Shown: positions 2,100-23,165, numbered from the stretch's first letter. The stretch: DNA of 64,000 nt from Candidatus Dormiibacterota bacterium (GCA_963718525.1 OY970355.1:736001-800000), one strand, 5' to 3'. Translations and numbers: made by a program. The notes: generated by a model from the letters alone, not told the origin.

Positions 2100-2727
2100 C
2101 CGGCCGCGGCGGTGTCATGGCACGGCTGCGTGCCCTCCACGGCCTCTCTACCGCACCCAGCTGTACCGACCACTCACCAGCCGAGGCAGAGCTTGTCGCC
2201 TGGGCACTCGAGCTGAGATGCGAGATCCTCGGCTTCGAATCGCTGATCAAGCAGCTCGAAGCGCGTTTGCCACAACTGCTGGCCGAGCGCGGCTCAACAC
2301 TGACCCAGGAGTTCGGGATTGGCGTCGTGTCCGCAGCAGAGTTGGTGGCTCAAGTCGGGGACGCTCGTCGATTTCGCAGCGAGAGCGCGTTCGCCCGCTG
2401 GTGTGGCGTTGCACCGGTCGCCGTCTCGAGTGGCGAAGGCGCAGGGCAGCCTCGTCGACACCGACTCGACCTTCTCGGCAATCGCGCGGTCAACCGGATC
2501 CTCTACACGATGTCGGTGACCCAGGCGAGTCACCACCCACCTGGACGCGAGTTCCTGCAACGCAAGCGGCATGAAGGCAAGTCGTTGAAGGAGGCTCGAC
2601 GAGCTCACAAGCGACTGCTCGCCAACCGTGTCATCCGTCGAATGTGGGCGGACACGCGGAATACGCGCCGAACCACTTCCGTCTGCATAGCCGTGGGCCT
2701 GACTGCTGTCGCTTGACAAAGGAGCCT
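2100..2727 (+). mobile_element. IS110 family transposase, C-terminal fragment with right end
   Basis: GIGVVSAAELVAQVGDARRFRSESAFARWCGVAP..SSG..GNRAVNRILY; ends in a CTTGACA-type terminus; no N-terminal DEDD domain. Confidence 0.8.
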
Positions 2728-3241
2728 CGCAACGTGGCCAGCGCCGTGCCCAAGCTGCACGCGCCGGCGGTGCTCGCGGTCGTGAAGTCGATCTTTCTGC
2801 AGCCAACTCGTGAGACCGCCCGCGACGCCGTGCACCACGCCCTCAGCGTGCTCGAGCCACGCTTTCCGACAGTGGCAGCCAAGCTCCGTGCGGCTGAAGC
2901 CGACGTGCTCGCGTACTTGGACTTTCCGGTCGACCACTGGCGCTCGATCTCCTCGACCAATGCCATCGAGCGGGTCAATGCGGAGCTCGACCGCCGCGCC
3001 AAGGTGGTGGGCATCTTCCCCAACACCGACTCGCTGCTCCGGCTGTTCACCGCAGTGCTCCAGGACCAGCACGACGAGTGGCAGGACGGACGCCGTCACT
3101 TCAGTCAGCAGTCGATGGCTCGCGTAATGCACCCCGACGGCCCGCCGCTGCTCACCAATCCGCTCACGGAGGGACTTGTCGCGTAGCTCACCGACGTTGC
3201 GAGAACTCCACCGAATTCACACCACTACCGGGGACTTGACC
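2728..3241 (+). mobile_element. IS256 family element, 3' fragment with right inverted repeat
   Basis: Protein nearly identical to the C-terminus of the 5850..7106 transposase (STNAIERVNAELDRR); terminal sequence ...ACCACTACCGGGGACTTGACC matches the end of the intact copy. Confidence 0.9.
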
Positions 3242-5794: not shown

Positions 5795-7191
5795 GGTCAA
5801 GTCCCGGGTAGTGGTGTGAATTCGGTGGAGTTCTCACAACGTCGGTGAACTAAGCGACAAGGCCCTCCGTGAGCGGGTTGGTGAGCAACGGCGGACCGTC
5901 GGGGTGGAGCAGGCGAGCCATCGACTGCTGACTGAAATGTCGGCGACCGTCCTGCCACTCGTCGTGCTGGTCCTGGAGCACGGCGGTGAACAGGCGCAAC
6001 AGGGAGTCGGTGTTGGGAAAGATGCCCACCACCTTGGCGCGGCGGTCGAGCTCGGCATTGACCCGCTCGATGGCGTTGGTCGAGGAGATCGAGCGCCAGT
6101 GGTCGACCGGGAAATCCAGGTAGGCGAGCACATCGGCCTCAGCCGCACGCAGCTTGGCTGCCACCGCGGGAAAGCGTGGCTCCAACACGGTGAGCGCATG
6201 CCCCACCGCGTCGCGGGCGGTCTCGCGCGTCGGCTGCAGGAAGATCGACTTGACCACCGCCAGCACCGCCGGCGCGTGGAGCTTGGGGACCGCGCTGGCC
6301 ACGTTGCGCAGAAAGTGCACCTTGCAGCGCTGCCACGTCGCCCCAGTGAACACCTGCGACAGCGCACTGCGCAGCCCTTCGTGGGCGTCGGAGATGACCA
6401 GCTGCACGCCGCTCAGTCCGCGTCGCGACAGGCTGCGGCAGAACTCCAGCCAGAACGCCTCGCTCTCGCTGGCGCCGACCGCAAGCCCGAGCACGCTCTT
6501 CTCGCCGCTGTCGCGCACACCCACGGCCACCACCGCCGCTTGGCTCACGATGCGCGCACCCTGACGCACCTTCTCGTAGGTCGCGTCGAACCAGACGTAC
6601 GGGTACGGCTCATCGAGGGGCCGCTCCCGGAACTCGGCGAGCTCCTCGTCGAGCAGCGCGCAGATCCGGCTCACCTCGCTGCGACTGATGCTGCAGCCAC
6701 CCAAGGCGGCCATGAGGTCGTCGACCTTGCGCGTGCTGATGCCGAGCACGTAGGCCTCTTGGACGACCGCCAGCAGCGCGCGATCGATACGTCGCCGAGG
6801 CTCGAGCAGCGACGGGAAGAAGCTGCCAGAGCGCAGCTTGGGGATCTGCAGCTCGAGGCGTCCCGAGCCGGTGTCGAGAACCCGCTCTCGGTAGCCGTTG
6901 CGGTACGTGGTGCGTGTCGATGCTCGCTCGTGTGGGCCGGCGCCGATCTGCGTGGCCGCCTCGGCTTCGATGAGCCGCTGCATGGCGTGTTCGAGGACAC
7001 GTCGCAACACGTCCGTGTCCGCGCCCTGAAGTTGACCGATCAGCGCCTGGTGCGTCATCCTGTTCTGGGCCATCGTGGGTCTCCTGGTTTGGGTTAGAGC
7101 TTCCAAGAGAACTCCGCGGTGGCCTACTTTGTCTACCTCGTCGGCAGCCCTGAGGTCACCCCGGATTTACACCACAATAAGGGACATCACT
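5795..7191 (-). mobile_element. Complete IS256 family insertion sequence
   Basis: Imperfect ~27-bp terminal inverted repeats (GGTCAAGTCCC../AGTGATGTCCC..) and 8-bp target duplication TGCCAAAA at 5787-5794 and 7192-7199. Confidence 0.93.
5850..7106 (-). CDS. IS256 family transposase
   Basis: RNGYRER..IPKLRSGSFFP, WFDATYEK, ISDAHEGL, WQRCKVHFLRN and STNAIER motifs (DDE Mutator family). Confidence 0.95.
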   Translation of the reverse strand: MEALTQTRRPTMAQNRMTHQALIGQLQGADTDVLRRVLEHAMQRLIEAEAATQIGAGPHERASTRTTYRNGYRERVLDTGSGRLELQIPKLRSGSFFPSLLEPRRRIDRALLAVVQEAYVLGISTRKVDDLMAALGGCSISRSEVSRICALLDEELAEFRERPLDEPYPYVWFDATYEKVRQGARIVSQAAVVAVGVRDSGEKSVLGLAVGASESEAFWLEFCRSLSRRGLSGVQLVISDAHEGLRSALSQVFTGATWQRCKVHFLRNVASAVPKLHAPAVLAVVKSIFLQPTRETARDAVGHALTVLEPRFPAVAAKLRAAEADVLAYLDFPVDHWRSISSTNAIERVNAELDRRAKVVGIFPNTDSLLRLFTAVLQDQHDEWQDGRRHFSQQSMARLLHPDGPPLLTNPLTEGLVA

Positions 7192-11367: not shown

Positions 11368-12261
11368 ATGGCCCATCCCCTCGCCGAATATCGCGTCGAT
11401 ACGGCGCGCCTGACGCTCTCGGTGCGAGACCACGCCGGTGGCGAGCCGTCCATCCTCGCGCTCCACGGCCTGGCGAGCAATGCGCGCTGGTGGGATCTCG
11501 TCGCGGAGGATCTCGTTCCCGCATATCGGGTGATCTCGGTGGACCTGCCGGGTCATGGCAAGAGCGATCGGCCGGACTCGGGCTACGACTTCGACACGGT
11601 GTCGAGCGACCTCGAGGGACTGCTTGCGGCGATCCGCCACCCTGAGCCGGTGGTGGTGGTCGGGCACAGCTGGGGCGCGACGGTCGCCCTCGCGTTCGCC
11701 GCGAACCACCCGGAGTTGGCGCTCGGCGTCGTCTGCATCGATGGCGGCGCCGGCGACCTCAAGGCGTACTTCGGCCCGAGCTGGGAGATGGCCGAGCAGA
11801 CCATGCGCCCGCCGGCGCTGAAGGGCGTGACCCCGGCGATGCTGCGCGCGTGGATGGACTCGTCGCCGCTGCGCGACGGGTCTGACCCGGACACTGCGGC
11901 CGCGATCCTGATGGGCAACTTCGAGGACGACGGCACCGGCGCCGGCACCCTCCGCCCGCGCCTCTCGCTCGAGCACCACATGGAGATTGCCCACCACCTC
12001 TTCGACGCCAATGGGTTCGAGCTGATGGCGAAGGTGCGCTGTCCGATGCTCTTCATTCCCGCCGGTCATCCCGACCACGAGGACTCGCCGAAGGTGCGGT
12101 CGATCGAGCGAGCCAGGGAGGTGGTGGGCGATCGCGCACGCTTCGTGTGGATCGACGGAGTGCACGACCTCCCGGTGCAGCGGCCGAAGCAGGTCGCGCA
12201 GGCGATCGCGGCATTCGTCGACGAGCTGGTGGCTCAGCCGAGCAGCACGTCCCAGAAGTAG
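11368..12261 (+). CDS. Alpha/beta fold hydrolase
   Basis: LHGLAS, DLPGHGKS, GHSWG nucleophile elbow, C-terminal His. Confidence 0.88.
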   Translation: MAHPLAEYRVDTARLTLSVRDHAGGEPSILALHGLASNARWWDLVAEDLVPAYRVISVDLPGHGKSDRPDSGYDFDTVSSDLEGLLAAIRHPEPVVVVGHSWGATVALAFAANHPELALGVVCIDGGAGDLKAYFGPSWEMAEQTMRPPALKGVTPAMLRAWMDSSPLRDGSDPDTAAAILMGNFEDDGTGAGTLRPRLSLEHHMEIAHHLFDANGFELMAKVRCPMLFIPAGHPDHEDSPKVRSIERAREVVGDRARFVWIDGVHDLPVQRPKQVAQAIAAFVDELVAQPSSTSQK

Positions 12262-13760
12262 CGCTCGCTCCGGGGCACGCCCTGATCGACGTGGATGTGC
12301 TTCACCTCGGTGTACTCGAGCAGGCCCGCTCGTCCGTGCTCGCGACCGATGCCGCTCTGCTTGTAACCCCCGAACGGCGCGAGCGGGTTGAGCAGGTGCC
12401 AGTCGTTGATCCAGACCGTCCCGGTACGCAGCTGTTTGGCGATCTCGATGGCGCCGCGCGTGTCGCGCGACCACACGCCGCCCGCGAGTCCGTAGATCGT
12501 CCGGTTGGCGCGCTGGATCACCTCGCCGAGGTCGCTCCAGCGCTGCACCGCGAGGACCGGTCCGAAGATCTCTTCGGTGCCGGCGTGCGAGTCGGGCGAC
12601 ACATTGGTGAGCACGGTTGGCTGGATGAAGAAGCCGCGGTCGCCGACGTTGGGCGCTCGCCCGCCGCCGCAGGCGACGGTCGCTCCCTCCTGCTTCGCCC
12701 GCTCGATCGCGGCCAAGATCATGTCGTACTGAGCGCGGTTGATCACCGGGCCGACCTGGGTGTCGAAGTCGGCCGCGTCACCCACACGCAGCGACGCCGC
12801 TCCGTCGACGAGACGGTCGACAAAGGTGTCGTAGATGTCGTCGTGGACGAAGAGGCGGGTGCCCGATTCGCACATCTGACCCTGATGGAAGAAGGTGCCG
12901 AAGAGCGCGCCATCGACCGCGATATCGAGGTCCGCATCCGGGCAGACGATGTTCGCGGACTTGCCGCCGAGCTCGAGCGTCACCTTCTTTATGGTGGGTG
13001 CGGCAGCTGCGAGGATCTTGCGGCCGGTGGCGGTGGATCCTGTGAAGGCCACCTTGTCCACGTCTGGGTTCTCGACGAGCTCGATGCCCGCGTCAACGCT
13101 GTCCCCGGTGACGACGTTGAGCACGCCTTTGGGGAGCAGGCCCGTTTCGTCGATGGCGCGAGCGACCGCCAGTGCGGACAGCGGCGTCTGCGGCGCCGGC
13201 TTCAGGACGATCGAGTTGCCCATGGCGAGCGCCGGCGCGATCTTCCACATCGCGAAGATCAACGGGTAGTTCCACGGGATGATCCCGGCGCACACGCCCA
13301 CCGGCTCGCGCTGCACGAAGTTCCAGGAGACGTAGGGGGAATCGATCCAGGGCAGCGGCTCGTACCAGGGCACGCCAAGCGCCTGCTCGGCCATGCTCCG
13401 GAACCACTCGATGGCGAGGGGCACATCGACCACAGAGGTCTTGCGCAGCGCAGCGCCGGCATTCTGCGATTCGAGCAGCCCCCAGTCGTCCGAGACCTCC
13501 TGGAGGTGCTCGACGATCTGGAACATGATCTGGGTGCGCTGCAACTGCGACTTGAGGCGCCAGTCCCCGGCTTCGAAGGAGCGGCGTGCGGCAGCGACGG
13601 CCCGGCGGGCGTCGGCCCGCGTGCTCGCCGGCGCGACGGCCATGACCTCTTCGGTGGACGGGTTGATGACGTCATAGGTGTGTCCGTCCTCGGCTCCGAC
13701 CCACTCACCGTCGATGTACTGCTGATACGTCGTCACCTCGGGCTCGACGACCGCTGTCAC
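12234..13760 (-). CDS. Aldehyde dehydrogenase family protein
   Basis: IIPWNYP, FTGST, LELGGKS, GQMCESG, EEIFGPV and FGGYKQSG motifs. Confidence 0.95.
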   Translation of the reverse strand: MTAVVEPEVTTYQQYIDGEWVGAEDGHTYDVINPSTEEVMAVAPASTRADARRAVAAARRSFEAGDWRLKSQLQRTQIMFQIVEHLQEVSDDWGLLESQNAGAALRKTSVVDVPLAIEWFRSMAEQALGVPWYEPLPWIDSPYVSWNFVQREPVGVCAGIIPWNYPLIFAMWKIAPALAMGNSIVLKPAPQTPLSALAVARAIDETGLLPKGVLNVVTGDSVDAGIELVENPDVDKVAFTGSTATGRKILAAAAPTIKKVTLELGGKSANIVCPDADLDIAVDGALFGTFFHQGQMCESGTRLFVHDDIYDTFVDRLVDGAASLRVGDAADFDTQVGPVINRAQYDMILAAIERAKQEGATVACGGGRAPNVGDRGFFIQPTVLTNVSPDSHAGTEEIFGPVLAVQRWSDLGEVIQRANRTIYGLAGGVWSRDTRGAIEIAKQLRTGTVWINDWHLLNPLAPFGGYKQSGIGREHGRAGLLEYTEVKHIHVDQGVPRSERYFWDVLLG

Positions 13761-13943
13761 TGACCACCTCCACCGCCCTGGGCCGCTGTTGACACCGGTG
13801 TCGATTATGCGGCGGGAGCTTGAGCGCTCTCATCGTGCCCCTCGCCTGACGACAGCCGTGGCGGTGCGCATTTGTCCGCGCCGCTGCGGCTACCATACCC
13901 TACGATACTGTCATTCTGCGAGCGCATACAGTGGAGTGGCGGC

Positions 13944-15110
13944 ATGGATCAGATCGAGTTCGCCGACGGCTTCGACAGACCAGACACGATCGCGTTCGGG
14001 CTCGGCGCCGGGCAGGTCGCCGTGGTCATGGCCTGCGCGCTTGCCGCGTATTCGCTGGTGCGCTCGCCGCTGCCGCCCGCGTTTGTCGACCCGATCGCCG
14101 GATTGCTCGTGGTTGCGGCGGCTGCGCTCGGGTGGCTGAGAGTCGAGGGGCGGCCGGCGCTCGACTGGGCGATCTTCGCCGGACGTTTCTGGATGCGTCC
14201 GCGCCGGGGGATGACCCGGTGGGAGCTCGCGACCACCACCCCGGGTGACGACGCCCAGCCTGCGCCGGGCACCGCTGCACAAGGGGCTGTCATTGAGCTC
14301 TTCGCTGCGCGCGGCACGCCTCCCGCGAGCGACCCGGGAACGCCGCCCGTGCTTCGCCCCATCAGCCGGGGGAGTGGCGCGCGACGGGTGACCTTCTTCT
14401 CCCTGCGAGGCGGCACCGGGCGCAGCACGCTGGCCACCGAACTCGCGTGCCTGCTCGCCGCCAGCCATAGCGAACAGCGCGCGGCTCCTCGGGTGGCACT
14501 CGTCGATCTCGACCTGCGCAGTCCGAGCGTGGCAGTCCGCCTCGGTACGCCGGAGCAGACGCTGCTCGACTACGCGCTCGCCCCGCCCGAAGAGAGACGA
14601 GTCGTCGACTTCATGGCCACCCACTCGTCCGGCGTCCGCCTGCTGCTCGGTCCACAGCGCCCCGTGAATCCCGAGTGGCCGGTGACGCCGGCGCTCCTCC
14701 GCGAGGTGCTTCGCGAGCTGGACATGGAGGCGTTCGACCTCGTGGTTCTGGACGTGTCGCCAGAGCTGTCACCACTGAACACCACGGCGATCTGCGCGTG
14801 CGATGACGTGTTCGTGGTGGTCGTGCCCACAGCGGGCGGTGTGCAGGATGCGTATCGGAGCACGGCGGCACTTCGCGGCCTCGGGCTGCGCCATCAGCTC
14901 CGCTACGTCGTCAATCGATCCAGGCCCGAGACGGACCTGAGTGAGCCGATGGCCGACCTCGGCGGTCAGGTGATTGGCGATATTCCGGACGACGAGTCGG
15001 TGGTCACCGCAGAGAATGCGCATCGACTCGTGACCCTCGACGAGTCGGCTCCTGCGGCGATCGCCCTCCGCCGACTCGCGCGCAGGGTCGGGAGCGAGCT
15101 GCACGCCTAG
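13944..15110 (+). CDS. PrgI/VirB3-like membrane domain fused to a MinD/CpaE(TadZ)-like P-loop domain
   Basis: N-terminus has D-x-IAFGL, two TM helices and GRPALDW..FWMRPR (PrgI pattern); C-terminus has FSLRGGTGRST, VALVDLDL, VVLDVS, VVNR and IPDD (MinD/ParA family). Confidence 0.7.
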   Translation: MDQIEFADGFDRPDTIAFGLGAGQVAVVMACALAAYSLVRSPLPPAFVDPIAGLLVVAAAALGWLRVEGRPALDWAIFAGRFWMRPRRGMTRWELATTTPGDDAQPAPGTAAQGAVIELFAARGTPPASDPGTPPVLRPISRGSGARRVTFFSLRGGTGRSTLATELACLLAASHSEQRAAPRVALVDLDLRSPSVAVRLGTPEQTLLDYALAPPEERRVVDFMATHSSGVRLLLGPQRPVNPEWPVTPALLREVLRELDMEAFDLVVLDVSPELSPLNTTAICACDDVFVVVVPTAGGVQDAYRSTAALRGLGLRHQLRYVVNRSRPETDLSEPMADLGGQVIGDIPDDESVVTAENAHRLVTLDESAPAAIALRRLARRVGSELHA

Positions 15111-17305
15111 TGGCCGGACTCAGCATCCGGGGCTGGCGGCCATCGGCGGCACCGGGACTCGCTGCGAAGATCGAGATCCGCGGAGACCATTGCGAGTACA
15201 CCGGGCGGGTTTCCGCAGTGCTCGCGACCAGCGAGTTGGACATCGATGCGCTGGATCCCGCGCGCAAGGCGGCTGCATCGGCGTCGTTCGCGCGCCTCTG
15301 CCACACGTTGCAGACCCCGATGCAGCTGCTCGTCCGCGTCCGGCTCCTCGACGCACCAGACGAACCGATCGCTGATGGCCCTCATGCCCATCTCGATGAC
15401 GCGATGCACCGGCACTGGACTGAACAGATCCTCGACGGCAACCGGCACACCCGTCAGGTCCTGGTCGCGCTGAGTGCCTCGACGCCATCGGCGCTTGACG
15501 CGGCGTGTGCGCACGCGAGCGATCGCCTCGGAGCGCTCGGCGTCATCGCGACGCGCCTCCAGGACGGCCCGCTGATGGACGCGCTCACCGCCGGCCTCGA
15601 GACGAAGTGCGATTGGTACGAGTATCCGAAACACGTCGCGATCGGCGGGATGCTGGTGCGCGGTCATGCGCTTCGGCGTCTTCCCGGCCACGCGGTGGGG
15701 GCGGGCTGGCTGGCACCGCTGCTCAGCGTGCAGACCGAGTGCGACATCGCGATCCACGTGGTGCCGGCACCCCTCGGCGAAGCCCTCGGCCGCCTGAGCA
15801 GGCGACTGCGTGATCTCTCCGCACATCGCATGCTCGAGGTCGAGCGAGGCGCGCTCGGTGACGTGCACGTCGACATCGGTTTCAACTCGGCAACCGCACT
15901 CCGCGAGAGGCTGGCACGCAACCAGGGACGTCCGCTCCATCTCTCAGTCGTGGCAACGGTTCGCGGCGATTCCCTCGACAGCGTGCACGCCCGTGGCGAG
16001 ACGTTGCGCGTGGCATTCGCGTCGTCGCTCATCGGCGTCGAGGCAACGCACTTCCGCCACATGGCCGCGCTGGTCAGCACGCTCCCACTCGGCGTCGAAG
16101 CGCTGAGCGCCGGCAAGCTCGTCGACTCTGCGGCCGCGGCCACGTGCATCCCGTGGGTCGAGACAGGATGCTCGGATCCAGGCGGATACCGGCTCGGCGC
16201 GGCGATCACCTCCGGACTTCCGGTCAAGGTCGCGCCGTTCGACACCACGCGCCATCCCAACCCGAACATCGCCGTCTTCGCAGCCTCAGGCCACGGCAAG
16301 AGCTTCGCGATCGGCACGCTCGTGCTCGAAGCCGCGGTCACAGGCGTGAACTCGGTGATCATCGATCCCGAGGGCGAGTACCGCGGCCTGGTCCGCGCGC
16401 TCGGCGGGCGCTACCTCGAGCTCGCGCCCGGCACCGGCGCCGCAGTCAACGTGTTCGAAGGCGCCGGCAATGATCCCGAAGCGGCGATTGCCGCGGTGGT
16501 TGACCTCGTCACCGTGCTGTGCGGCGATCAACTCGGCGAGGTGGAGCGCGCCGTCATCGACGCCGCAGCGCGGGCGGGTCTCGAGCGTGCGGCGGGCGAC
16601 CACCGCGTCCCGCTCCTCGAGGACTGCATTCCCACGCTCGATGTCGACGCGCGCCCCGTTGCCGCTGTGGTCCGGCGCTTCTGCACCGGAGGCCTCGGTG
16701 CCCTCTTCAACCGTCCCACGTCGCTCGCCGTCGATTCCGGCGTGTGCGCCATCTCGCTGCGAGACATGCCGCCCGAGCATGTTGCGGCCGCGACGCTCAT
16801 CGTCGCGCGTTGGTTGTGGGAGCTGGTGCAGCGCGACCGGCGGCGCCGTCATATCGTGTTCGACGAGGTTGGCGCGCTCTGCGTGCACCGCCCCCTGCGC
16901 GACCTGCTCGTGCAGCTCGCGCGACGCTGCCGCAAGTACAGCGCATCGCTGGTGGTGGCGACGCAGAACGCGCAGGACCTGCTCGGCACCGATGAGGGCA
17001 GCGTGATCGCGACCAATTGCGCAGTGGTCCTCCTGGGTGGTCATCGAGCGGCGGAAACCGCGCGAATGGAACGTGCGTTCGGCCTCACCGAGGCGCAGCG
17101 AGGCTTCCTCGAGACCGCATCTCGCGGCGAGTTCCTGCTCCTCGCGGGCGATCGGCGCGTTGCCATGCGCATCGAGGTTCCGGAGGTACACCGGTCCATA
17201 CTCAATGGCGAATTCGCGGCGCAGTACCCCCTTGACGGCAGCCCTCCCGACTCGCAAGATATGGGGGCTCCCGGACGGCTGAGCCCCAAGATATGGGATC
17301 ATTAA
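15110..17305 (+). CDS. VirB4/TraC-like ATPase
   Basis: NPNIAVFAASGHGKS (Walker A), IIDPEGEY, IVFDEV (Walker B), ARRCRKY..VATQN, FL..ASRGEFLL; start overlaps the upstream stop. Confidence 0.85.
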   Translation: MAGLSIRGWRPSAAPGLAAKIEIRGDHCEYTGRVSAVLATSELDIDALDPARKAAASASFARLCHTLQTPMQLLVRVRLLDAPDEPIADGPHAHLDDAMHRHWTEQILDGNRHTRQVLVALSASTPSALDAACAHASDRLGALGVIATRLQDGPLMDALTAGLETKCDWYEYPKHVAIGGMLVRGHALRRLPGHAVGAGWLAPLLSVQTECDIAIHVVPAPLGEALGRLSRRLRDLSAHRMLEVERGALGDVHVDIGFNSATALRERLARNQGRPLHLSVVATVRGDSLDSVHARGETLRVAFASSLIGVEATHFRHMAALVSTLPLGVEALSAGKLVDSAAAATCIPWVETGCSDPGGYRLGAAITSGLPVKVAPFDTTRHPNPNIAVFAASGHGKSFAIGTLVLEAAVTGVNSVIIDPEGEYRGLVRALGGRYLELAPGTGAAVNVFEGAGNDPEAAIAAVVDLVTVLCGDQLGEVERAVIDAAARAGLERAAGDHRVPLLEDCIPTLDVDARPVAAVVRRFCTGGLGALFNRPTSLAVDSGVCAISLRDMPPEHVAAATLIVARWLWELVQRDRRRRHIVFDEVGALCVHRPLRDLLVQLARRCRKYSASLVVATQNAQDLLGTDEGSVIATNCAVVLLGGHRAAETARMERAFGLTEAQRGFLETASRGEFLLLAGDRRVAMRIEVPEVHRSILNGEFAAQYPLDGSPPDSQDMGAPGRLSPKIWDH
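17232..17299 (+). promoter_or_regulatory. nrdJ promoter with tandem NrdR boxes
   Basis: TTGACG-17 bp-CAAGAT promoter; two CAAGATATGGG cores at 17255 and 17287 (32 bp apart) fit the NrdR box consensus acaCwAtATaTwGtg. Confidence 0.75.
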
Positions 17306-17406
17306 CGTGATCTCACCACTGGAGATAGGGGCTCGAGGTCGCCAGGGCGCGGTCCTGCACACGTCTCTGCACAATGAAGCGCCCACCAGCTAGAAGAGGA
17401 AAGACC

Positions 17407-20400
17407 GTGGATCGATCCGCCTCCAAACCCGTCCCAGACAACTCGCACAGCATCTCGATGGAGCCCCCGTCGGGACGCAGATCGGGTCGTAGAAACGGGA
17501 CCGCGCAGGCGCGCGTCAGCGCCAAGGTGGAGGTCGAGGGCGGCGGGATTCACGTCGAGCGGCGCTTCACCAAAGAGGGTGTGCATCCCTTCGACGAGGT
17601 GACCTGGGAACAGCGCACCGCGGCCATCGGCAACGAGAAGGGCGAGACCGTCTTCGAGCAGAAGGATTGCGAGATCCCGACGTTCTGGTCACAGATGGCC
17701 ACAAACGTGGTGGTCAGCAAGTACTTCCGCGGCAAGCTCGGAACGCCCGGTCGCGAGACCAGTGTCAAGCAGATGATCTCGCGCGTTGCCGAAGCCATCG
17801 GTAAGTTCGGCAGGGCAGGCGGGTATTTCGCCACCGAGACCGACGCCCAGGCATTCCAGGACGAGCTCACCCACCTGTTGCTCCACCAGAAGATGGCCTT
17901 CAACAGCCCGGTGTGGTTCAACCTCGGCGTCTCCACGAGCAAGCCGCAGATCAGTGCGTGTCAGCCGTATGACGCACGAGTCGCGACACCCAATGGCATG
18001 ATCCCCATCGGAGAGCTCGTCGATCGCGATGCCATCGGCGAGGAAGTCTTTGATCGGAATGGCGTGACGCGGATCGTAGCGACCAAGGCGAACGGCCGGA
18101 AGGAAGTCTTCAGGTTGACCATCGGATCGGGGGTCACGGTGGACGCAACCGCAGACCACGTCATCCTGGTTGCCGATGACCGAAAGGGGCTTCGGACATC
18201 TTGGAAGCGCGTCGGCGAGGTGAGGCCCGGGGATCGCCTGGTTCTCGATGCAAGTAGGACCGTGATGCGTCCCGCGGAAGTCTCCGTCATGGAGCTTGCT
18301 GGCCTTGGCGCGCCTCGTCCCTATGCAGGACGCGGTCGGCGGTTCCAGCAGCAGGGCGATGTCGAGAGCTGGATCGAGACAGCAGCCACTGAACCGCATC
18401 TGATTGCGGTTGCGGAAGCGTCCCTCGCCGGCTGGCTGCAGGGCGATGGTTACGTTGGGATCCCAGCTGGCTGCACATCACTCGTCATCGAACTGCAGCC
18501 TGCGGACGCAGAGGAATTGGCGGATGTCGAGAGGCTCCTCGATATCGTCTTTCCTGGCGTCCATCGTCATGTCACACGCTCCGACGCGGCTGGAGATCGG
18601 GGCTGCTACAGGGTGCGGCTGTCCGGCGAAGTCCTCGTTCCGTTTGTGAACAAGTGGGAATTGACCACCCGTGGCGCCGAGATGCACGTTCCCAGCTGCC
18701 TGTGGAGCTCATCGACGGATGAGATCGCCGGGTACGTGCGCAGTCTCTTCCAGGCAGATGGCTACGTGAGCATCCAGGCTAGAACAGCCGATCGCGCATG
18801 GCCGCGAGCCGCCGTCGGTCTTGGCACTGTTTCCTATCAGCTCGCGGCGGACGTCCAGCAGTTGCTGCTGACCCTCGGTGTCCAATCGACGGTCAGGACT
18901 GAGCCGGCGCACGGCGTCCGGCAAGCGTTCAACACAGTCACCATCGGCACACGCCCGGACCGGCTGCTCTTCGAAGAGCTCGTCGGCTTCCCCTGTGCTC
19001 GCAAGGCCTCCTTGCTGAAGGCGTCACTCGAGATCGGTGTCGATAACACCCCAAGGCATCAGATCCGATTCCCGCGCGTCGCCGCGATCGCGTCACGCGG
19101 CGTCATGGACGTCTACGACATCCAGACGGAAAGCGGCAACTACCTGAGCAATCACGTCGTCGTGCACAACTGCTTCATCAACAGCGTTGACGACACCATG
19201 GAGTCGATCCTCACGCTCGCCAAGACCGAGGGCATGCTCTTCAAGTACGGCAGCGGCACGGGGACCAACCTCTCCAGCATCCGTTCGTCGACCGAGTCGC
19301 TCGCCGGCGGCGGCACCGCCAGCGGGCCTGTGTCCTTCATGAAGGGCTTCGACGCCTTCGCCGGGGTCATCAAGAGCGGTGGCACGACGCGCCGCGCCGC
19401 CAAGATGGTGATCCTCAATGCCGACCATCCCGACATCGAGGAGTTCATCACCTGCAAGGTGAGCGAGGAGCGCAAGGCGTGGGCGCTCATCGAGGCCGGA
19501 TACGACAGCTCCTTCACCGGCGAGGCGTACGCGTCGGTCTTCTTCCAGAACAGCAACAACTCGGTCCGCGTGACCGACGAGTTCATGCGCGCGGTGCAGG
19601 ACGATCGCGACTGGCATCTCCACGCGGTCACCAACTCCAGCCGGATCCTCAAGACCGTGAAGGCCCGCGAGCTGATGCGGCTCATCGCCGAGTCGGCGTG
19701 GCAGTGCGGCGACCCCGGCATGCAGTACGACACCACCATCAACGACTGGCACACGTCCGCGGCAACGGGTCGCATCAACGCCAGCAATCCGTGCAGCGAG
19801 TTCATGTTCCTCGATGACACCAGCTGCAACCTAGCGTCGATCAATCTCACCCGGTTCCTCAACGACGACGGTTCGATCGACATCGAGGCCTACAAGCACG
19901 CGATCCACATCACGATCACCGCGCAGGAGATCCTGGTCAGCAACGCCTCGTATCCCACGGAGAAGATCGCCAGAAACAGCGAGGAGTTCCGTCCGCTCGG
20001 TCTCGGCTATGCCAATCTCGGCGCCCTGCTCATGGCGCGCGGCGTTCCGTACAACTCCCCGCAGGGTCGTGACCTGGCCGCGTGCCTCACCTCGATCCTC
20101 ACCGGCGAGGCGTACGCGCAATCGGCTCGCATCGCACGCGAGATCGGACCCTTCAGCGGCTACGCCGTCAACCGCCAGCCGATGCTGCGCGTGGTCGGCA
20201 AGCACCGTGAGGCCGCGTACAACATCCCGACCGACAACATCGAGCCCGACCTCGTCGGCGCGGCGCGCCATGCATGGGACGAGGCCCACGAGCTTGGCGC
20301 GCGTTACGGCTATCGCAACTCGCAGGCCACCGTGCTCGCACCCACCGGGACGATCAGCTTCATGCTCGACTGCGACACCACCGGCGTCGAGCCGGACATC

Positions 20401-21489
20401 GCGCTGGTCAAGTACAAGAAGCTCGTCGGCGGCGGCATGCTGAAGATGGTCAACGGCACCGTACCTGCCGCGCTTCGCAGGCTCGGCTATGGCGAGACCG
20501 CCATCGGTGACATCGTGGCGTTCATCGACGCCAACGACACCATCGAAGGAGCACCGACGCTTCGCGACGAGGATATCGCGGTCTTCGACTGCGCCTTCAC
20601 GCCGCAGAACGGCAAGCGCTCGATCACGTGGCAGGGCCACCTCCGCATGATGGCCGCGGTGCAGCCGTTCATCAGCGGCGCGATCTCCAAGACGGTGAAC
20701 ATGCCCAACGAGGCGACCGTCGAGGACATCGAACGTGCGTACACCGACGGCTGGAAGCTCGGCCTCAAGGCGGTCGCGATCTACCGCGATGGCAGCAAGC
20801 GCAGCCAACCGCTGGCAACCAGCATCGACAAGACCACGGGGCATCGCGTCCAGATCGTCGAGCGTCCGCTGCGCAAGCGACTGCCCGCCGAGCGCACCGC
20901 GATCACGCACAAGTTCGAGGTCGGCGGCCACGAGGGATACATCACCGTCGGCCTCTACGAGGACGGCACACCGGGAGAGATCTTCCTGCGCATGGCCAAG
21001 GAGGGTTCCACGGTCAGCGGACTGATGGACTCGTTTGCGACAGCGGTCTCGCTCGCGCTGCAGTACGGCGTTCCCCTGCCGGCGCTCGTCGACAAGTTCT
21101 CGCACACCCGCTTCGATCCGCAGGGATTCACGCGCAACCCGGAGATCCCCATCGCCAAGTCGGTGATGGACTACATCTTCCGGTGGCTCGCCTCCCGCTT
21201 CCTGCCCCAGGAGGAGCGCGATCGCCTCGGCATCATCCGCCGCGAACCCGACGGCAGCGTCACGGAACCCGTGTCAGCCGCCGAGGCCGCAATCGAGGCC
21301 ATGGCACCAGTGACGGTTGCTCCTGTCGCTGCAGCGCGCAAGCTCACCACCGCGATTCCCCTGACGAGCGCAGGCGCATTCATCAACCAGGAAGACGCAC
21401 CCACATGCAGCGACTGCGGCAGCCTCATGGTGCGCAACGGCGCCTGCTACAAGTGCCACAACTGCGGAGCGACGAGCGGCTGCAGCTGA
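17407..21489 (+). CDS. nrdJ: Vitamin B12-dependent class II ribonucleotide reductase with intein, TSCPD domain and C-terminal Zn ribbon
   Basis: FNSPVWFN, GGTTRRAAKM, SNPCSE, CNLASINL, APTGTIS, ISKTVN and terminal CxxC..CxxC..SGCS; GTG start after an AGAGGA RBS. Confidence 0.96.
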   Translation: MDRSASKPVPDNSHSISMEPPSGRRSGRRNGTAQARVSAKVEVEGGGIHVERRFTKEGVHPFDEVTWEQRTAAIGNEKGETVFEQKDCEIPTFWSQMATNVVVSKYFRGKLGTPGRETSVKQMISRVAEAIGKFGRAGGYFATETDAQAFQDELTHLLLHQKMAFNSPVWFNLGVSTSKPQISACQPYDARVATPNGMIPIGELVDRDAIGEEVFDRNGVTRIVATKANGRKEVFRLTIGSGVTVDATADHVILVADDRKGLRTSWKRVGEVRPGDRLVLDASRTVMRPAEVSVMELAGLGAPRPYAGRGRRFQQQGDVESWIETAATEPHLIAVAEASLAGWLQGDGYVGIPAGCTSLVIELQPADAEELADVERLLDIVFPGVHRHVTRSDAAGDRGCYRVRLSGEVLVPFVNKWELTTRGAEMHVPSCLWSSSTDEIAGYVRSLFQADGYVSIQARTADRAWPRAAVGLGTVSYQLAADVQQLLLTLGVQSTVRTEPAHGVRQAFNTVTIGTRPDRLLFEELVGFPCARKASLLKASLEIGVDNTPRHQIRFPRVAAIASRGVMDVYDIQTESGNYLSNHVVVHNCFINSVDDTMESILTLAKTEGMLFKYGSGTGTNLSSIRSSTESLAGGGTASGPVSFMKGFDAFAGVIKSGGTTRRAAKMVILNADHPDIEEFITCKVSEERKAWALIEAGYDSSFTGEAYASVFFQNSNNSVRVTDEFMRAVQDDRDWHLHAVTNSSRILKTVKARELMRLIAESAWQCGDPGMQYDTTINDWHTSAATGRINASNPCSEFMFLDDTSCNLASINLTRFLNDDGSIDIEAYKHAIHITITAQEILVSNASYPTEKIARNSEEFRPLGLGYANLGALLMARGVPYNSPQGRDLAACLTSILTGEAYAQSARIAREIGPFSGYAVNRQPMLRVVGKHREAAYNIPTDNIEPDLVGAARHAWDEAHELGARYGYRNSQATVLAPTGTISFMLDCDTTGVEPDIALVKYKKLVGGGMLKMVNGTVPAALRRLGYGETAIGDIVAFIDANDTIEGAPTLRDEDIAVFDCAFTPQNGKRSITWQGHLRMMAAVQPFISGAISKTVNMPNEATVEDIERAYTDGWKLGLKAVAIYRDGSKRSQPLATSIDKTTGHRVQIVERPLRKRLPAERTAITHKFEVGGHEGYITVGLYEDGTPGEIFLRMAKEGSTVSGLMDSFATAVSLALQYGVPLPALVDKFSHTRFDPQGFTRNPEIPIAKSVMDYIFRWLASRFLPQEERDRLGIIRREPDGSVTEPVSAAEAAIEAMAPVTVAPVAAARKLTTAIPLTSAGAFINQEDAPTCSDCGSLMVRNGACYKCHNCGATSGCS
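17959..19170 (+). mobile_element. Intein with LAGLIDADG homing endonuclease (404 aa)
   Basis: QISA|CQPYD...VYDIQT..VVHN|CFIN splice junctions; LAGWLQGDG and SLFQADG motifs; codon usage differs from the exteins. Confidence 0.93.
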
Positions 21490-21635: not shown

Positions 21636-23165
21636 ATGTTTGCATTGGACAATACGAAGACACATGCGCACCTGATGGGGGCATCGGGGCTCCGAGATGG
21701 ATCGGCACCACAGCCGAATATCAGGCTCGGTCGACTTTTCAATCTCGCGCAGGACATGCTGTGCGTCGCCAGCTTCGACGGCTACCTGATAGAGGTCAAT
21801 CCAGCCTGGCAACGTATCCTGGGTTGGACGGCCACCGAGTTGACAAGCAGGCCATACGCCGACCTTGTGCACCCCGCAGATCGTGAAACGACTTTGTCCG
21901 CGCCCGATGTGCTGATGGATGGACAGCATGTGGTTCATTACGAGAACCGCTACCGAACCCGCGAGGGCTCATTTCGCTGGCTGTCGTGGATGGCGACACC
22001 AAGCGTCGAGGATGGCGTGATCTACGCGGCCGCACATGACATCACTCAAGCGAAGCTCGAGAGTCAGATTGAAGCGGCCAAGACCGCGGTGACCCGAATC
22101 GCCGGCGAGTTCGCAGATTGGGATGAGGCGGCGTGGCAAATCCTCAAGGCGGTCTGCACTTGCCTTCTTTGGGACGTGGGCGCGTTGTGGCTCGTTGACC
22201 CCGGACAGCAGCAGCTGGTGTGCAAGCACGCGTACTTCGCCACGGACGACCTTCGGGAGTTGCTCGGCTCGGAACTTCGACACGATCGTCGGCGGATTGG
22301 GGAATCGCTCGTTGGGCTTGCATGGGAGCGTGACGAACCCCTGCTGAGCGAGGACGTGCTCAGCGACACGCGCTTCGCGGCGCCAGCGCCTGCCGCGCGA
22401 GCTGATCTCGGCGGCGGATTCGCTTTCCCCTTACGCCACGGCGGAGATGTCGTAGGCGTGATGGGCTTCGGCAGTCGTGACGTCGCACACGTGGACGTCG
22501 ATTTGCGTACGAAATCAAGGCAGCTGGCCGCGCAGATTGAAGGCGTGCTGGGCAAACTTGCAACGCAGCGTGACACCTATCACATGGCGTTTCACGATGC
22601 GCTCACGGGTCTCCCAAATGTGGCGCTCTTCCGCGAGCGAGCGAATCAAGCACTGTTGATGAGTCGGCGGCTCAAGATGCCGGTCGGCATCGGAATCGCG
22701 GACATCGACCATTTCAAGGACATCAACGACACGCTCGGGCACGCGGCCGGTGACGGTGTGCTCCGTCATATCGGGGTTCGATTGAAGGATTCATTGCGAG
22801 GATCCGATACCGTTGCACGCCTCGGGGGCGACGAGTTTGCGATCCTCTTTCCAGCAACTTCCATAGAGGGTATCGAGCGCGCAATGCGTAAGCTGCGCGC
22901 CAGCCTTTCGCACGGACTGAAGCTGGATGGCTGCGAACCGATCCACGTGAGCGTGGGCTATGCCATCGCCAGGAGTGGTGAGACGTCACTCGACGACCTG
23001 CTCAAGATTGCCGACGCGAACATGTACCGATGGAAACGATGCCGACGGCACGAGAGCGAAGAGCACCGCGTCAGCGCTGGTCATGCGGCTGGTGTCGCTC
23101 GCGGCGGCAGAGACCTGCGGGGCCTTTCGCGTCGCCCTGCCGGTCACTCTCGCTCAACTCGCTGA
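21636..23165 (+). CDS. PAS-GAF-GGDEF diguanylate cyclase
   Basis: VNPAWQRILGW..VHPAD PAS domain, GAF domain, HDALTGLPN, DIDHFKDINDTLGH and RLGGDEF. Confidence 0.92.
   Translation: MFALDNTKTHAHLMGASGLRDGSAPQPNIRLGRLFNLAQDMLCVASFDGYLIEVNPAWQRILGWTATELTSRPYADLVHPADRETTLSAPDVLMDGQHVVHYENRYRTREGSFRWLSWMATPSVEDGVIYAAAHDITQAKLESQIEAAKTAVTRIAGEFADWDEAAWQILKAVCTCLLWDVGALWLVDPGQQQLVCKHAYFATDDLRELLGSELRHDRRRIGESLVGLAWERDEPLLSEDVLSDTRFAAPAPAARADLGGGFAFPLRHGGDVVGVMGFGSRDVAHVDVDLRTKSRQLAAQIEGVLGKLATQRDTYHMAFHDALTGLPNVALFRERANQALLMSRRLKMPVGIGIADIDHFKDINDTLGHAAGDGVLRHIGVRLKDSLRGSDTVARLGGDEFAILFPATSIEGIERAMRKLRASLSHGLKLDGCEPIHVSVGYAIARSGETSLDDLLKIADANMYRWKRCRRHESEEHRVSAGHAAGVARGGRDLRGLSRRPAGHSRSTR

Follow-up and report, generated by a model that had tools for sequence, protein, structure and literature searches.

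In a 64,000-nucleotide stretch from a Dormibacteria-class bacterium (GCA_963718525.1 OY970355.1:736001-800000; hereafter the window, with positions counted from its first base), two overlapping plus-strand genes encode a fusion of a PrgI/VirB3-like membrane hairpin to a ParA/MinD/TadZ-like domain, followed by a VirB4-type ATPase. The fusion brings together components of two kinds of machine that usually occur apart, VirB3 of type IV secretion systems (T4SSs) and TadZ, the hub of Tad pili. We consider the pair to be, more likely than not, a vertically inherited chromosomal VirB3-like/VirB4 unit that remains from a chimeric Tad-pilus/T4SS operon. Comparison with relatives shows that the TadZ/CpaE-type scaffold ATPase heading the operon acquired a monoderm-type VirB3 (PrgI) hairpin by fusion in an ancestor shared with other families assigned to the phylum, with virB4 as the last gene of the operon. 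In the window's lineage eight inner Tad genes were lost and the first and last genes were joined; the pair now lies by nrdJ and has been kept under purifying selection. The relatives carry the source names Candidatus Dormibacterota or Dormibacteria, a class within a large phylum in the genome tool that we used, and some public locus records are named 'Chloroflexi'. Genomes and loci are given below as G and L numbers (G000, with contig C1, is the window's own genome, and the others belong to relatives) and families as f numbers.

Gene 1 (13944-15110, 388 residues) comprises the hairpin, a linker and the ParA-like domain, and was delimited from its open reading frame (ORF), Pfam, NCBIfam and homologues. 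Gene 2 (15110-17305, 731 residues) is the VirB4-type ATPase, recognised in the same databases and with an orthologue profile. The stop codon TAG of gene 1 (15108-15110) and the start codon GTG of gene 2 (15110-15112) have base 15110 in common, forming a TA(G)TG junction (15108-15112, plus strand) that suggests translational coupling; relatives have the same spacing, for example L031, where the fusion ends at 5992 and virB4 starts at 5995. A longer ORF would begin at TTG 13872, and we prefer the ATG at 13944 as the start of gene 1 because all 120 closest homologues (64-92% identity, 99-100% coverage of the 388-residue form) cover the query from or near residue 1. The pair is flanked 5' by an aldehyde dehydrogenase (ALDH) gene (12234-13760, minus strand) and 3' by nrdJ, a class II ribonucleotide reductase gene with an intein (17374-21489, plus strand), both assigned in a family scan of the window's ORFs. 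Among the 57 window ORFs scanned (33 + 24), no relaxase, type IV coupling protein (T4CP), VirB6, VirB8 or integrase family was found, and a repeat search around the pair gave short chance-level repeats only, none of them att-like. The composition of the pair is host-like and slightly GC-rich: its GC content, 0.693, exceeds the 0.663 of the genome and falls at the 94th percentile of 3.4-kb windows, and its tetranucleotide distance is ordinary, with 25% of random windows deviating more from the genome profile. An earlier note, made from the sequence alone, had described two overlapping genes of host-like composition between ALDH and nrdJ, with no relaxase, VirD4, VirB6, integrase or att sites in the window, and all of these statements stand.

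The evidence for the origin of the pair comes from its relatives. We fetched 78 Dormibacteria loci around orthologues of the fusion. In 50 of them virB4 lies directly 3' of the fusion (the short form), and most of these have TPS and ALDH genes upstream and nrdJ downstream. CpaF lies directly 3' of the fusion in 20 loci, 12 of which can be traced to virB4, and the remaining eight either break off or have only the fusion. The order of this long form is fusion, CpaF, TadB, TadC, Flp, TadE, TadG, (PKD), CpaB, VirB4. The inner genes match Pfam families T2SSE (CpaF/TadA, 8e-45), T2SSF (TadC, 4e-10; a second, weak match for TadB, 4e-4), TadE (6e-4), the Tad/TadG-like PF13400 (1.5e-7) and RcpC/CpaB (2e-9 to 3e-13), besides the PKD protein. 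An inner ORF of 48-50 residues reads ...KGQSTLEW..., in agreement with the Flp prepilin leader pattern G/xxxxE[YW]. A minus-strand ORF family between TadC and CpaB, 'X19', was rejected as an artefact lying opposite the real plus-strand flp, tadE and tadG. In the long form the fusion occupies the TadZ position of Tad loci, first in the operon and directly before CpaF. Long-form loci of the window's own family retain TPS and an alpha/beta hydrolase upstream, and since the same upstream neighbours are retained, the long and short forms share one chromosomal place.

The same operon is found outside the class. A library-wide profile search returned 129 proteins at E<=1e-30, including distant full-length fusions of 457-504 residues that have the same architecture and are 28-31% identical to the Dormibacteria proteins over both domains. 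Such outgroup orthologues were found in seven of 301 genomes sampled from the phylum, none of them in the class (three of 15 in f12 and four in f34, both assigned to the same phylum as Dormibacteria by the genome tool). Three of the four outgroup loci fetched (G106 and G058 of f12, G124 of f34) carry the operon in the same order and ending in virB4, and the fourth (G178) shows every operon gene except virB4. In a VirB4 tree rooted on the three outgroup virB4 genes, Dormibacteria form one clade (support 100), as does each family (92-100), and the operon forms need at least four changes. The tree has 35 rows; most of the near-identical rows at genus level were omitted, as were L035 and L037 (fragmented), L071 (on a long branch) and L112 (unpublished). 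It replaced a first tree rooted on the second VirB4 of the genome, whose root was unusable (branch length 9.4). Because the outgroup carries the long form, the two-gene form is derived: the eight inner genes disappeared on at least three separate occasions, in f52, f3 and part of f1. They were lost and not moved, since the best match in the window's genome to the CpaF of a same-family long form is 45% identical, and the long-form TadB, PKD and CpaB have no match there at E<=1e-4. In f4 the operon is split: one contig of G110 carries fusion, CpaF, TadB and TadC, and a second contig carries Flp, TadE, TadG, CpaB and VirB4. In f3 the gene upstream of virB4 encodes the hairpin plus a vestigial P-loop domain in 233 residues and overlaps virB4 (L118:1070-1771), and many f3 genomes (e.g. 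G498, G511) have only an open frame of 103-148 residues directly before virB4; this family has shrunk or lost its ATPase domain, so that plain PrgI-VirB4 pairs result. A link to Tad pili, which the earlier note had put forward as a possibility, is supported: in relatives the fusion holds the place of TadZ as first gene of a complete Tad operon whose last gene is virB4. A stand-alone module, as the earlier note described it, has to be abandoned, the pair being what is left of an operon of 10 genes (12 in the outgroup).

Two extra conserved genes precede the fusion in the outgroup (L129:6596-8102, L130:3274-4781, L131:14071-15572, L132:13423-14923). The first encodes 125-130 residues with a signal peptide and two hydrophobic helices, matches T4SS_pilin (PF18895) at E 1e-4, under the cut-off, and is putatively VirB2-like. 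The second encodes a polytopic membrane protein of 365-370 residues without a family match; the AlphaFold2 (AF2) model of the 366-residue protein (pLDDT 45.8) was too poor for a fold search. Searches by tblastn of Dormibacteria loci and the window's genome returned neither gene. Additionally, f3 has a conserved protein of ~196 residues without a Pfam match 3' of virB4, adjoining it in L118 (3850-4440) and one gene away in L111 (14210-14803).

The PrgI/VirB3-like domain of gene 1 spans residues 1-90 (13944-14213, plus strand). Pfam PrgI (PF12666) matches residues 12-87 of the whole protein at E 8e-4 (20.3 bits; cut-off 27) and the isolated domain at E 4.3e-5 (24.4 bits). At E<=0.01 it also matches 12 of 15 full-length orthologues and 16 of 18 isolated orthologous domains (best 1.3e-7), the matches in these two sets being counted as sub-threshold. 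In a six-frame scan of the 3.34-Mb genome, the hairpin was the sole PF12666 match. The NCBIfam model SCO6880_fam aligns to the same N-terminus at E 8e-8 (profile positions 12-118 of 477; below cut-off), hhalign pairs the hairpin with the N-terminus of a PrgI family protein of an Embleya plasmid at E 4e-4, and 44% of the members of an Atlas cluster of 260 mostly Dormibacterota proteins carry PF12666. The AF2 model of gene 1 (mean pLDDT 75.7) places in this domain a short beta hairpin, membrane helices at 22-39 and 45-64 and then a helix at 72-83, with pLDDT 80-89. Foldseek was uninformative for the small hairpin, its matches being dominated by the ParA fold. Two transmembrane helices, a C-terminal helix and a gene adjoining virB4 are given as criteria for VirB3 homologues in the available part of PMC12857230. 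The first 90 residues of gene 1 show two transmembrane helices followed by an alpha-helix, and the gene lies directly 5' of virB4 in the window and in the 50 short-form loci, while eight genes intervene in the long forms. The strongest argument for a VirB3-like hairpin is its comparative behaviour: the hairpin gene and virB4 were kept together after Tad loss, and the hairpin outlasts the ATPase domain.

A low-complexity linker rich in Pro and Ala (residues 86-142; 14199-14369) connects the hairpin to the ATPase domain; its pLDDT is below 50 for residues 86-130 and 132-142, and its length varies widely among orthologues, with insertions of up to more than 200 alignment columns. The ParA/MinD/FleN/TadZ-type P-loop domain follows at residues 147-382 (14382-15089). 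Pfam ParA, AAA_31 and CbiA match residues 148-362 above their cut-offs (E 8e-10 to 1e-8). NCBIfam MinD, BcsQ, KGGVGR-variant ATPase and CpaE_hom_Actino match under theirs, with 38 bits against 154 for CpaE_hom_Actino and 53-55 bits against 202-213 for the MinD equivalog. The top Foldseek matches are FleN, MinD and FlhG (E 5e-15 to 1e-13; TM 0.7-0.8 to target). Specifically, the Walker A motif is deviant, R155-G-G-T-G-R160-S-T (14406-14429), with arginine in place of both the signature lysine and the P-loop lysine. Outgroup and f4 fusions retain GK[ST]T, and since RGGTGRST is kept in 118 of the 120 closest metagenome homologues, it is a fixed feature and does not reflect decay. Lysine-to-arginine changes in a P-loop are expected to permit nucleotide binding with little turnover. 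A receiver-like N-terminal domain is typical of TadZ, and the N-terminus of gene 1 is instead the PrgI-type membrane hairpin. The available part of PMC6668835 places TadZ in the FleN branch, with an atypical Walker A and ATP binding with low hydrolysis, and describes it as a hub recruiting Tad components. Gene 1 shares with TadZ/CpaE of Tad (Flp, type IVc) pili this ParA/MinD/FleN-type fold and the atypical Walker A. A neighbouring CpaF/TadA gene is present in the 20 long-form loci and in L129 to L132, while no Tad gene adjoins the fusion in the window.

Gene 2 resembles VirB4 by several measures. The VirB4-like NCBIfam model conju_CD1110 matches it at E 7e-50 (170 bits; cut-off 325) and TIGR00929 with 70 bits (cut-off 643), and other VirB4/TraC models of NCBIfam match as well. 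A profile of 20 orthologues matches the solved VirB4 structure 4AG5 at E 3e-54 and TrwK at E 6e-14, as expected of the C-terminal P-loop domain of the family. Walker A, G394-H-G-K397-S (16289-16303), and Walker B, D585-E586 (16862-16867), are intact, and S393, G394, G396, K397 and D585-E586 are invariant across the 20 orthologues. The setting differs from that of a T4SS cluster, VirB6, VirB8 and T4CP being absent among the 57 window ORFs and the neighbours in relatives being Tad genes. NCBIfam also gave weak matches of the pair to CedD (6.5e-4) and CedB (0.41), and PADLOC ATPase-domain models matched gene 2 weakly (PDC-M28B 1e-8, mad8 2e-16, HerA 2e-7; range to 6e-4). A defence-system reading was dropped, the VirB4 matches being far stronger and the synteny being with Tad genes. 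The pair belongs to no curated family, and the family searches, structure model and profile searches together agree with the domain order proposed earlier, a PrgI/VirB3-like hairpin fused to a MinD/CpaE-type ATPase and then VirB4.

By analogy with T4SSs, the two-helix hairpin would insert in the membrane and bind the N-terminal domain of VirB4 as VirB3 does, thereby tethering the VirB4 oligomer to the membrane. VirB4 would act as the motor, since its Walker A and B are intact. The ParA-like domain probably binds nucleotide and would hardly hydrolyse it, since both P-loop lysines are arginine; like TadZ, it may serve as a dimerising adaptor or localiser. Its task in long-form operons would be to attach the VirB4 motor to the CpaF/TadBC platform. 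In the window organism it might dock onto unlinked Tad machinery, to which we give somewhat less than an even chance, or it might act alone. Candidate substrates are pilin-like subunits, another protein or DNA. That the pair moves or takes up a macromolecule along or through a Tad-type filament is a guess, which we regard as unlikely. The DNA uptake or secretion of the earlier note is likewise conjecture, and the spatial targeting that it envisaged would fall to a MinD-like domain in which arginine replaces both P-loop lysines. Rather doubtful, too, is a more far-reaching proposal, in which Dormibacteria and some other lineages of the phylum would possess an undescribed machine with the energising core of a T4SS hard-wired into a Tad pilus through the VirB3-TadZ fusion. 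The core would consist of VirB3-VirB4, joined in the outgroup by the VirB2-like pilin and the polytopic membrane protein. The pair would then be a minimal VirB4 translocase working in trans with Tad pili and moving DNA or protein between cells, a bacterial counterpart of Ups/Ced.

Several observations weigh against our reading of the pair as a VirB3-like/VirB4 remnant of a chimeric operon. The window protein never reaches a curated Pfam or NCBIfam cut-off for the PrgI assignment, sub-threshold PF12666 matches (E<=0.1) also occur in 8 of 14 well-known control genomes, and the hhalign probability for the plasmid PrgI family protein is only 34%. With no VirB6-like channel, VirB8, T4CP or relaxase beside the pair, there is no path for translocation. 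How the three main lineages branch at the base of the VirB4 tree is poorly settled, so the number of losses is a minimum. In some Tad half-operons headed by the fusion, virB4 is unlinked (G110) or not within 6.8 kb (L102, L104), and the hairpin could therefore be a mere membrane anchor for TadZ. In addition, the genome has a separate Tad locus adjoining secE-nusG-rplK (G000:C1:3047000-3074200; L029, L030), in which family scans identified two CpaF paralogues, TadE, a SAF/CpaB-like protein, TadB, TadC and three tandem CpaE/TadZ-type ATPases with receiver (Response_reg) domains. As this locus owns three CpaE-type genes, it has no obvious need for the fusion. Finally, the ratio of nonsynonymous to synonymous substitutions (dN/dS) is 2-4 times as high in the pair as in the housekeeping genes at its flanks.

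The 3' end of virB4 overlaps what looks like the regulatory region of nrdJ. Two NrdR-like boxes lie on the plus strand, box 1 (CAAGATATGGGG) at 17255-17266 and box 2 (CAAGATATGGGA) at 17287-17298, the latter ending 5 bases before the virB4 stop codon TAA (17303-17305) and overlapping a -10-like word (GGGATCAT/GGGATAAT). The boxes are near-identical, 32 bp apart and within the last 51 bases of virB4, and by eye they are conserved in 42 of the 43 loci with virB4 before nrdJ, distant genera included. We take them to be putative NrdR boxes from their resemblance to the NrdR box consensus, and an nrdR gene is present in the genome (G000:C1:14828-15265; 186 bits, above cut-off). The earlier proposal of an nrdJ promoter and NrdR boxes inside virB4 has gained two conserved boxes and a regulator gene, with a tentative assignment of the boxes to NrdR. 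Their conservation shows an old virB4-nrdJ junction in the clade and a C-terminal VirB4 tail under constraint at the DNA level.

This sharing of the 3' end with an NrdR-controlled promoter region would fit a role in the cell cycle or envelope apart from pili and secretion, in which the tethered ATPase and the MinD-like protein beside it serve septation or chromosome segregation, as has been proposed for the chromosomal CmdB (VirB4-like) and CmdC (SCO6880-like) cluster of Streptomyces. The partner domain has the MinD/ParA fold, and the N-terminus of gene 1 matches SCO6880_fam. According to the available part of PMC2782261, deletion of cmdB or cmdA-F causes aberrant branching, septation defects and 6-8% anucleate spores, CmdB is membrane-located, and SCO6878, SCO6880 and SCO6881 resemble cmdB, cmdC and cmdD. 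We nevertheless hold such a role to be improbable: in relatives and the outgroup the pair is built into a Tad operon and no division cluster, the family scan of window ORFs revealed no MinC/MinE-type partner or other Min gene adjoining the pair, the adjacency to nrdJ is limited to part of f1, and the Cmd mechanism itself is not known.

A further alternative is that the hairpin is a generic two-helix anchor which replaced the N-terminal domain of TadZ, and that the ATPase is a separately recruited HerA/VirB4-like enzyme without any partnership between them. The sub-threshold PF12666 score, the similar matches in control genomes, the half-operons without an adjoining virB4 (L102, L104, G110) and the weak mad8 and HerA matches of the ATPase (E 2e-16 to 6e-4) would all be compatible with it. 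The uniqueness of the hairpin as a PF12666 match in its genome and the matches to 16 of 18 orthologous domains, however, speak for a specific PrgI relationship, as the similarity to 4AG5 does for a true VirB4. Moreover, exactly these two genes were kept together after Tad loss in at least three lineages, in f3 the hairpin stays directly 5' of virB4 while the ATPase domain decays, and the presence and absence of the two genes across genomes are closely alike. An unpartnered anchor and ATPase are, on this evidence, quite improbable.

The pair is widespread in the class, for which we tallied 374 genomes, unpublished ones included. VirB4 was found at E<=1e-30 in 321 of these and in 106 of the 118 high-quality ones, distributed over families as 104/116 in f1, 42/44 in f52, 28/43 in f2, 11/11 in f4 and 135/159 in f3. 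The PrgI-like hairpin domain (profile A3, 18 sequences) was found in 308, with 107/116, 41/44, 25/43, 11/11 and 123/159 in the same families. Among the 20 genomes without a match that were listed for each gene, 14 are common to both. When the whole fusion was used as query at E<=1e-34 in a sample of 201 genomes, full-length matches occurred in six of eight f1, three of four f2, all three f4 and none of six f3 genomes; the other sampled genomes, outside the class, gave the ParA part only. VirB4 is therefore a near-core gene of this uncultured soil class and not mobile DNA.

The remaining sequence relationships of VirB4 also bear on mobility. No plasmid record covers at least 80% of the window VirB4, and all 154 plasmid matches are below 60% identity. 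The nearest plasmid-borne VirB4 (30% identity) lies on Embleya plasmid NZ_CP108778, in a cluster with the order PrgI family protein, XF1762, VirB4-like, T4CP, replication-relaxation protein, NlpC/P60. That the nearest plasmid relatives sit in conjugation clusters would suit a view of the pair as a piece of a conjugative element or integrative and conjugative element (ICE), lending VirB3/VirB4 to unlinked T4SS-like genes for DNA transfer. Indeed, family scans of the window's genome found a second T4SS-like locus (G000:C1:339046-353399; L003, L004, L005) with a T4CP (339046-340815), a VirB11-like T2SSE ATPase (345643-347046), a TrbL/VirB6-like protein (351849-353399) and several small ORFs without a family match. 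This locus, however, has its own VirB4 of 876 residues (349222-351852), 25-29% identical to that of the window, and no relaxase or integrase among its ORFs scanned. The earlier note supposed remaining subunits to be encoded elsewhere; neither this locus nor the separate Tad locus was tied to the pair by anything found. Relaxase, T4CP, integrase, att repeats and patchy spread, the marks of such an element, are lacking at the pair, which has host-like composition and lies in synteny with core genes in 50 loci, and the VirB4 tree follows the families. That the present pair is a piece of a conjugative element is thus very improbable; the pair is not mobile, but vertically inherited, long resident in the chromosome and under purifying selection. 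The long residence supposed in the earlier note is borne out by this class-wide spread, family-like tree and core-gene synteny, and three of the findings that it had named as damaging to its view, patchy homologues, location in complete ICEs and relaxed dN/dS, did not emerge; VirB4 occurs in 321 of 374 genomes, and dN/dS is 0.09-0.22. As side observations, a VirB4 of 884 residues, similar to the second one of the genome, occurs in genomes without the pair (G092, G146), and four public metagenome-assembled genome (MAG) records titled Saccharimonadales, Acidiferrales or Angelobacter (L050, L053, L060, L091) share the synteny of Dormibacteria and fall within this class in the VirB4 tree, so that their taxon labels look wrong.

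Selection on the pair was estimated by the pairwise Nei-Gojobori method for nine pairs, one further pair being skipped for lack of a full-length match. Over all nine, the fusion has a dN/dS of 0.09-0.25 and VirB4 one of 0.15-0.33; within genus the ranges are 0.09-0.21 and 0.15-0.22, respectively. The flanking genes give 0.03-0.09 (ALDH) and 0.05-0.16 (TPS). In some long-read MAGs the pair shows split high-scoring segment pairs or internal stops. The stops occur mainly where ALDH, TPS and nrdJ are also broken (L035, L049, L052, L057, L070), and because the same assemblies break neighbouring housekeeping genes, they are most simply read as assembly errors. The raised dN/dS, these interruptions and the lost P-loop lysines of the ParA-like domain might otherwise point to a decaying, functionless leftover of the deleted Tad operon, but with the low within-genus dN/dS, identical RGGTGRST in nearly all homologues, invariant VirB4 Walker motifs, a conserved one-base overlap and the pair in 106 of 118 high-quality genomes, we find this hardly credible.

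We compared the pair with known systems. Monoderm VirB3/VirB4 pairs, such as PrgI-PrgJ of pCF10 and those of Embleya NZ_CP108778, likewise have a small two-helix membrane protein encoded directly 5' of, and overlapping, VirB4, and the window ATPase matches the CD1110-type VirB4 model and 4AG5. In the window, by contrast, the hairpin is fused to ~300 residues of linker and ATPase domain, VirB6, VirB8, VirB1, T4CP and relaxase are absent nearby, and the pair is chromosomal, inherited vertically across a class and below all curated VirB cut-offs in score. VirB4 motors that serve a machine other than a T4SS are known from Pseudomonas aeruginosa PAPI-1 (VirB4/VirD4 with a type IV pilus) and mycobacterial plasmids (VirB4/VirD4 with a type VII secretion system, T7SS), which the available part of PMC12857230 presents as chimeric. 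Both belong to mobile elements, have a T4CP and transfer DNA, and the PAPI-1 type IV pilus is made by type II-like machinery; here the partner is Tad, VirB3 is fused to TadZ, no T4CP is linked, the locus is core chromosomal, and the window keeps only the VirB3-TadZ and VirB4 genes. The Streptomyces cmdABCDEF and SCO6871-6884 clusters are similar in that a conserved, chromosomal, membrane VirB4-like CmdB lies beside the SCO6880-like CmdC and is not conjugative, but they hold five membrane proteins, and the available part of PMC2782261 mentions no ParA-like domain or Tad genes. Chromosomal T4SSs of Patescibacteria, described in the available part of PMC12102498 as a sister lineage of Chloroflexota and Dormibacterota, have a monoderm-type VirB4 with PrgI/VirB3, mostly lack a relaxase and are regarded there as co-opted for another function. 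They keep VirB6 and arrays of VirB2-like pilins, however, and the same part of that source reports no VirB3-VirB4 fusions there and mentions neither Tad genes nor a TadZ fusion. Archaeal Ced DNA import with Ups type IV pili also combines a chromosomal VirB4-like ATPase, small membrane partners and a functional link to pili, whereas Ced and Ups are separate loci and no CedA-like polytopic protein was found at the window pair.

Our literature searches returned no description of a PrgI/VirB3-TadZ fusion or operon, none combining VirB4 with TadZ or CpaF and no paper on T4SSs in Dormibacteria, in keeping with the earlier note, which knew of no described PrgI-MinD/CpaE fusion. The finding invites the question which function a VirB4 has in a free-living bacterium that lacks a channel, coupling protein or relaxase. 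A natural deletion series is at hand, from 12 genes in the outgroup through 10 in some Dormibacteria to fusion plus VirB4 and finally plain PrgI plus VirB4; it singles out VirB3-VirB4 as the selected unit and offers a handle on the minimal function of VirB4. If the Tad link is true, the system would be a third kind of VirB4 chimera beside PAPI-1 and the mycobacterial T7SS, and may bear on gene exchange in Dormibacteria.

The surroundings of the pair contributed little else. An Rfam scan of window positions 12000-19000 at E<=1 gave no match, hence no riboswitch or known RNA between the genes, and a promoter and terminator scan yielded one minus-strand promoter-like site and two terminator-like sites at chance level, none of them useful. 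Soil metatranscriptome contigs (X1) contain pieces 90-99% alike, covering 13897-13996 and parts of 16232-17380 only; as they come from relatives and the library may hold DNA, we did not count them as evidence of expression. Some 6.8-11 kb 5' of the pair are two ORFs for Mutator-family transposases (2644-3186 and 5850-7106), of which one is partial and the other full-length (E 7.5e-129). Pili and adhesion are often under c-di-GMP control, and genes for two c-di-GMP signalling proteins, PAS-GAF-GGDEF (21636-23165) and GGDEF-EAL (35070-37445), lie 3' of nrdJ. The nrdJ intein has a LAGLIDADG domain and comprises ~400 residues, roughly 197-599. It is missing in most relatives, whose matches jump from residue 196 to 597/600, and is present in L038, L044, L049, L050 and L068; extra gaps near residues 807 and 995 in L069, L073, L088 and L093 suggest inteins at other sites.

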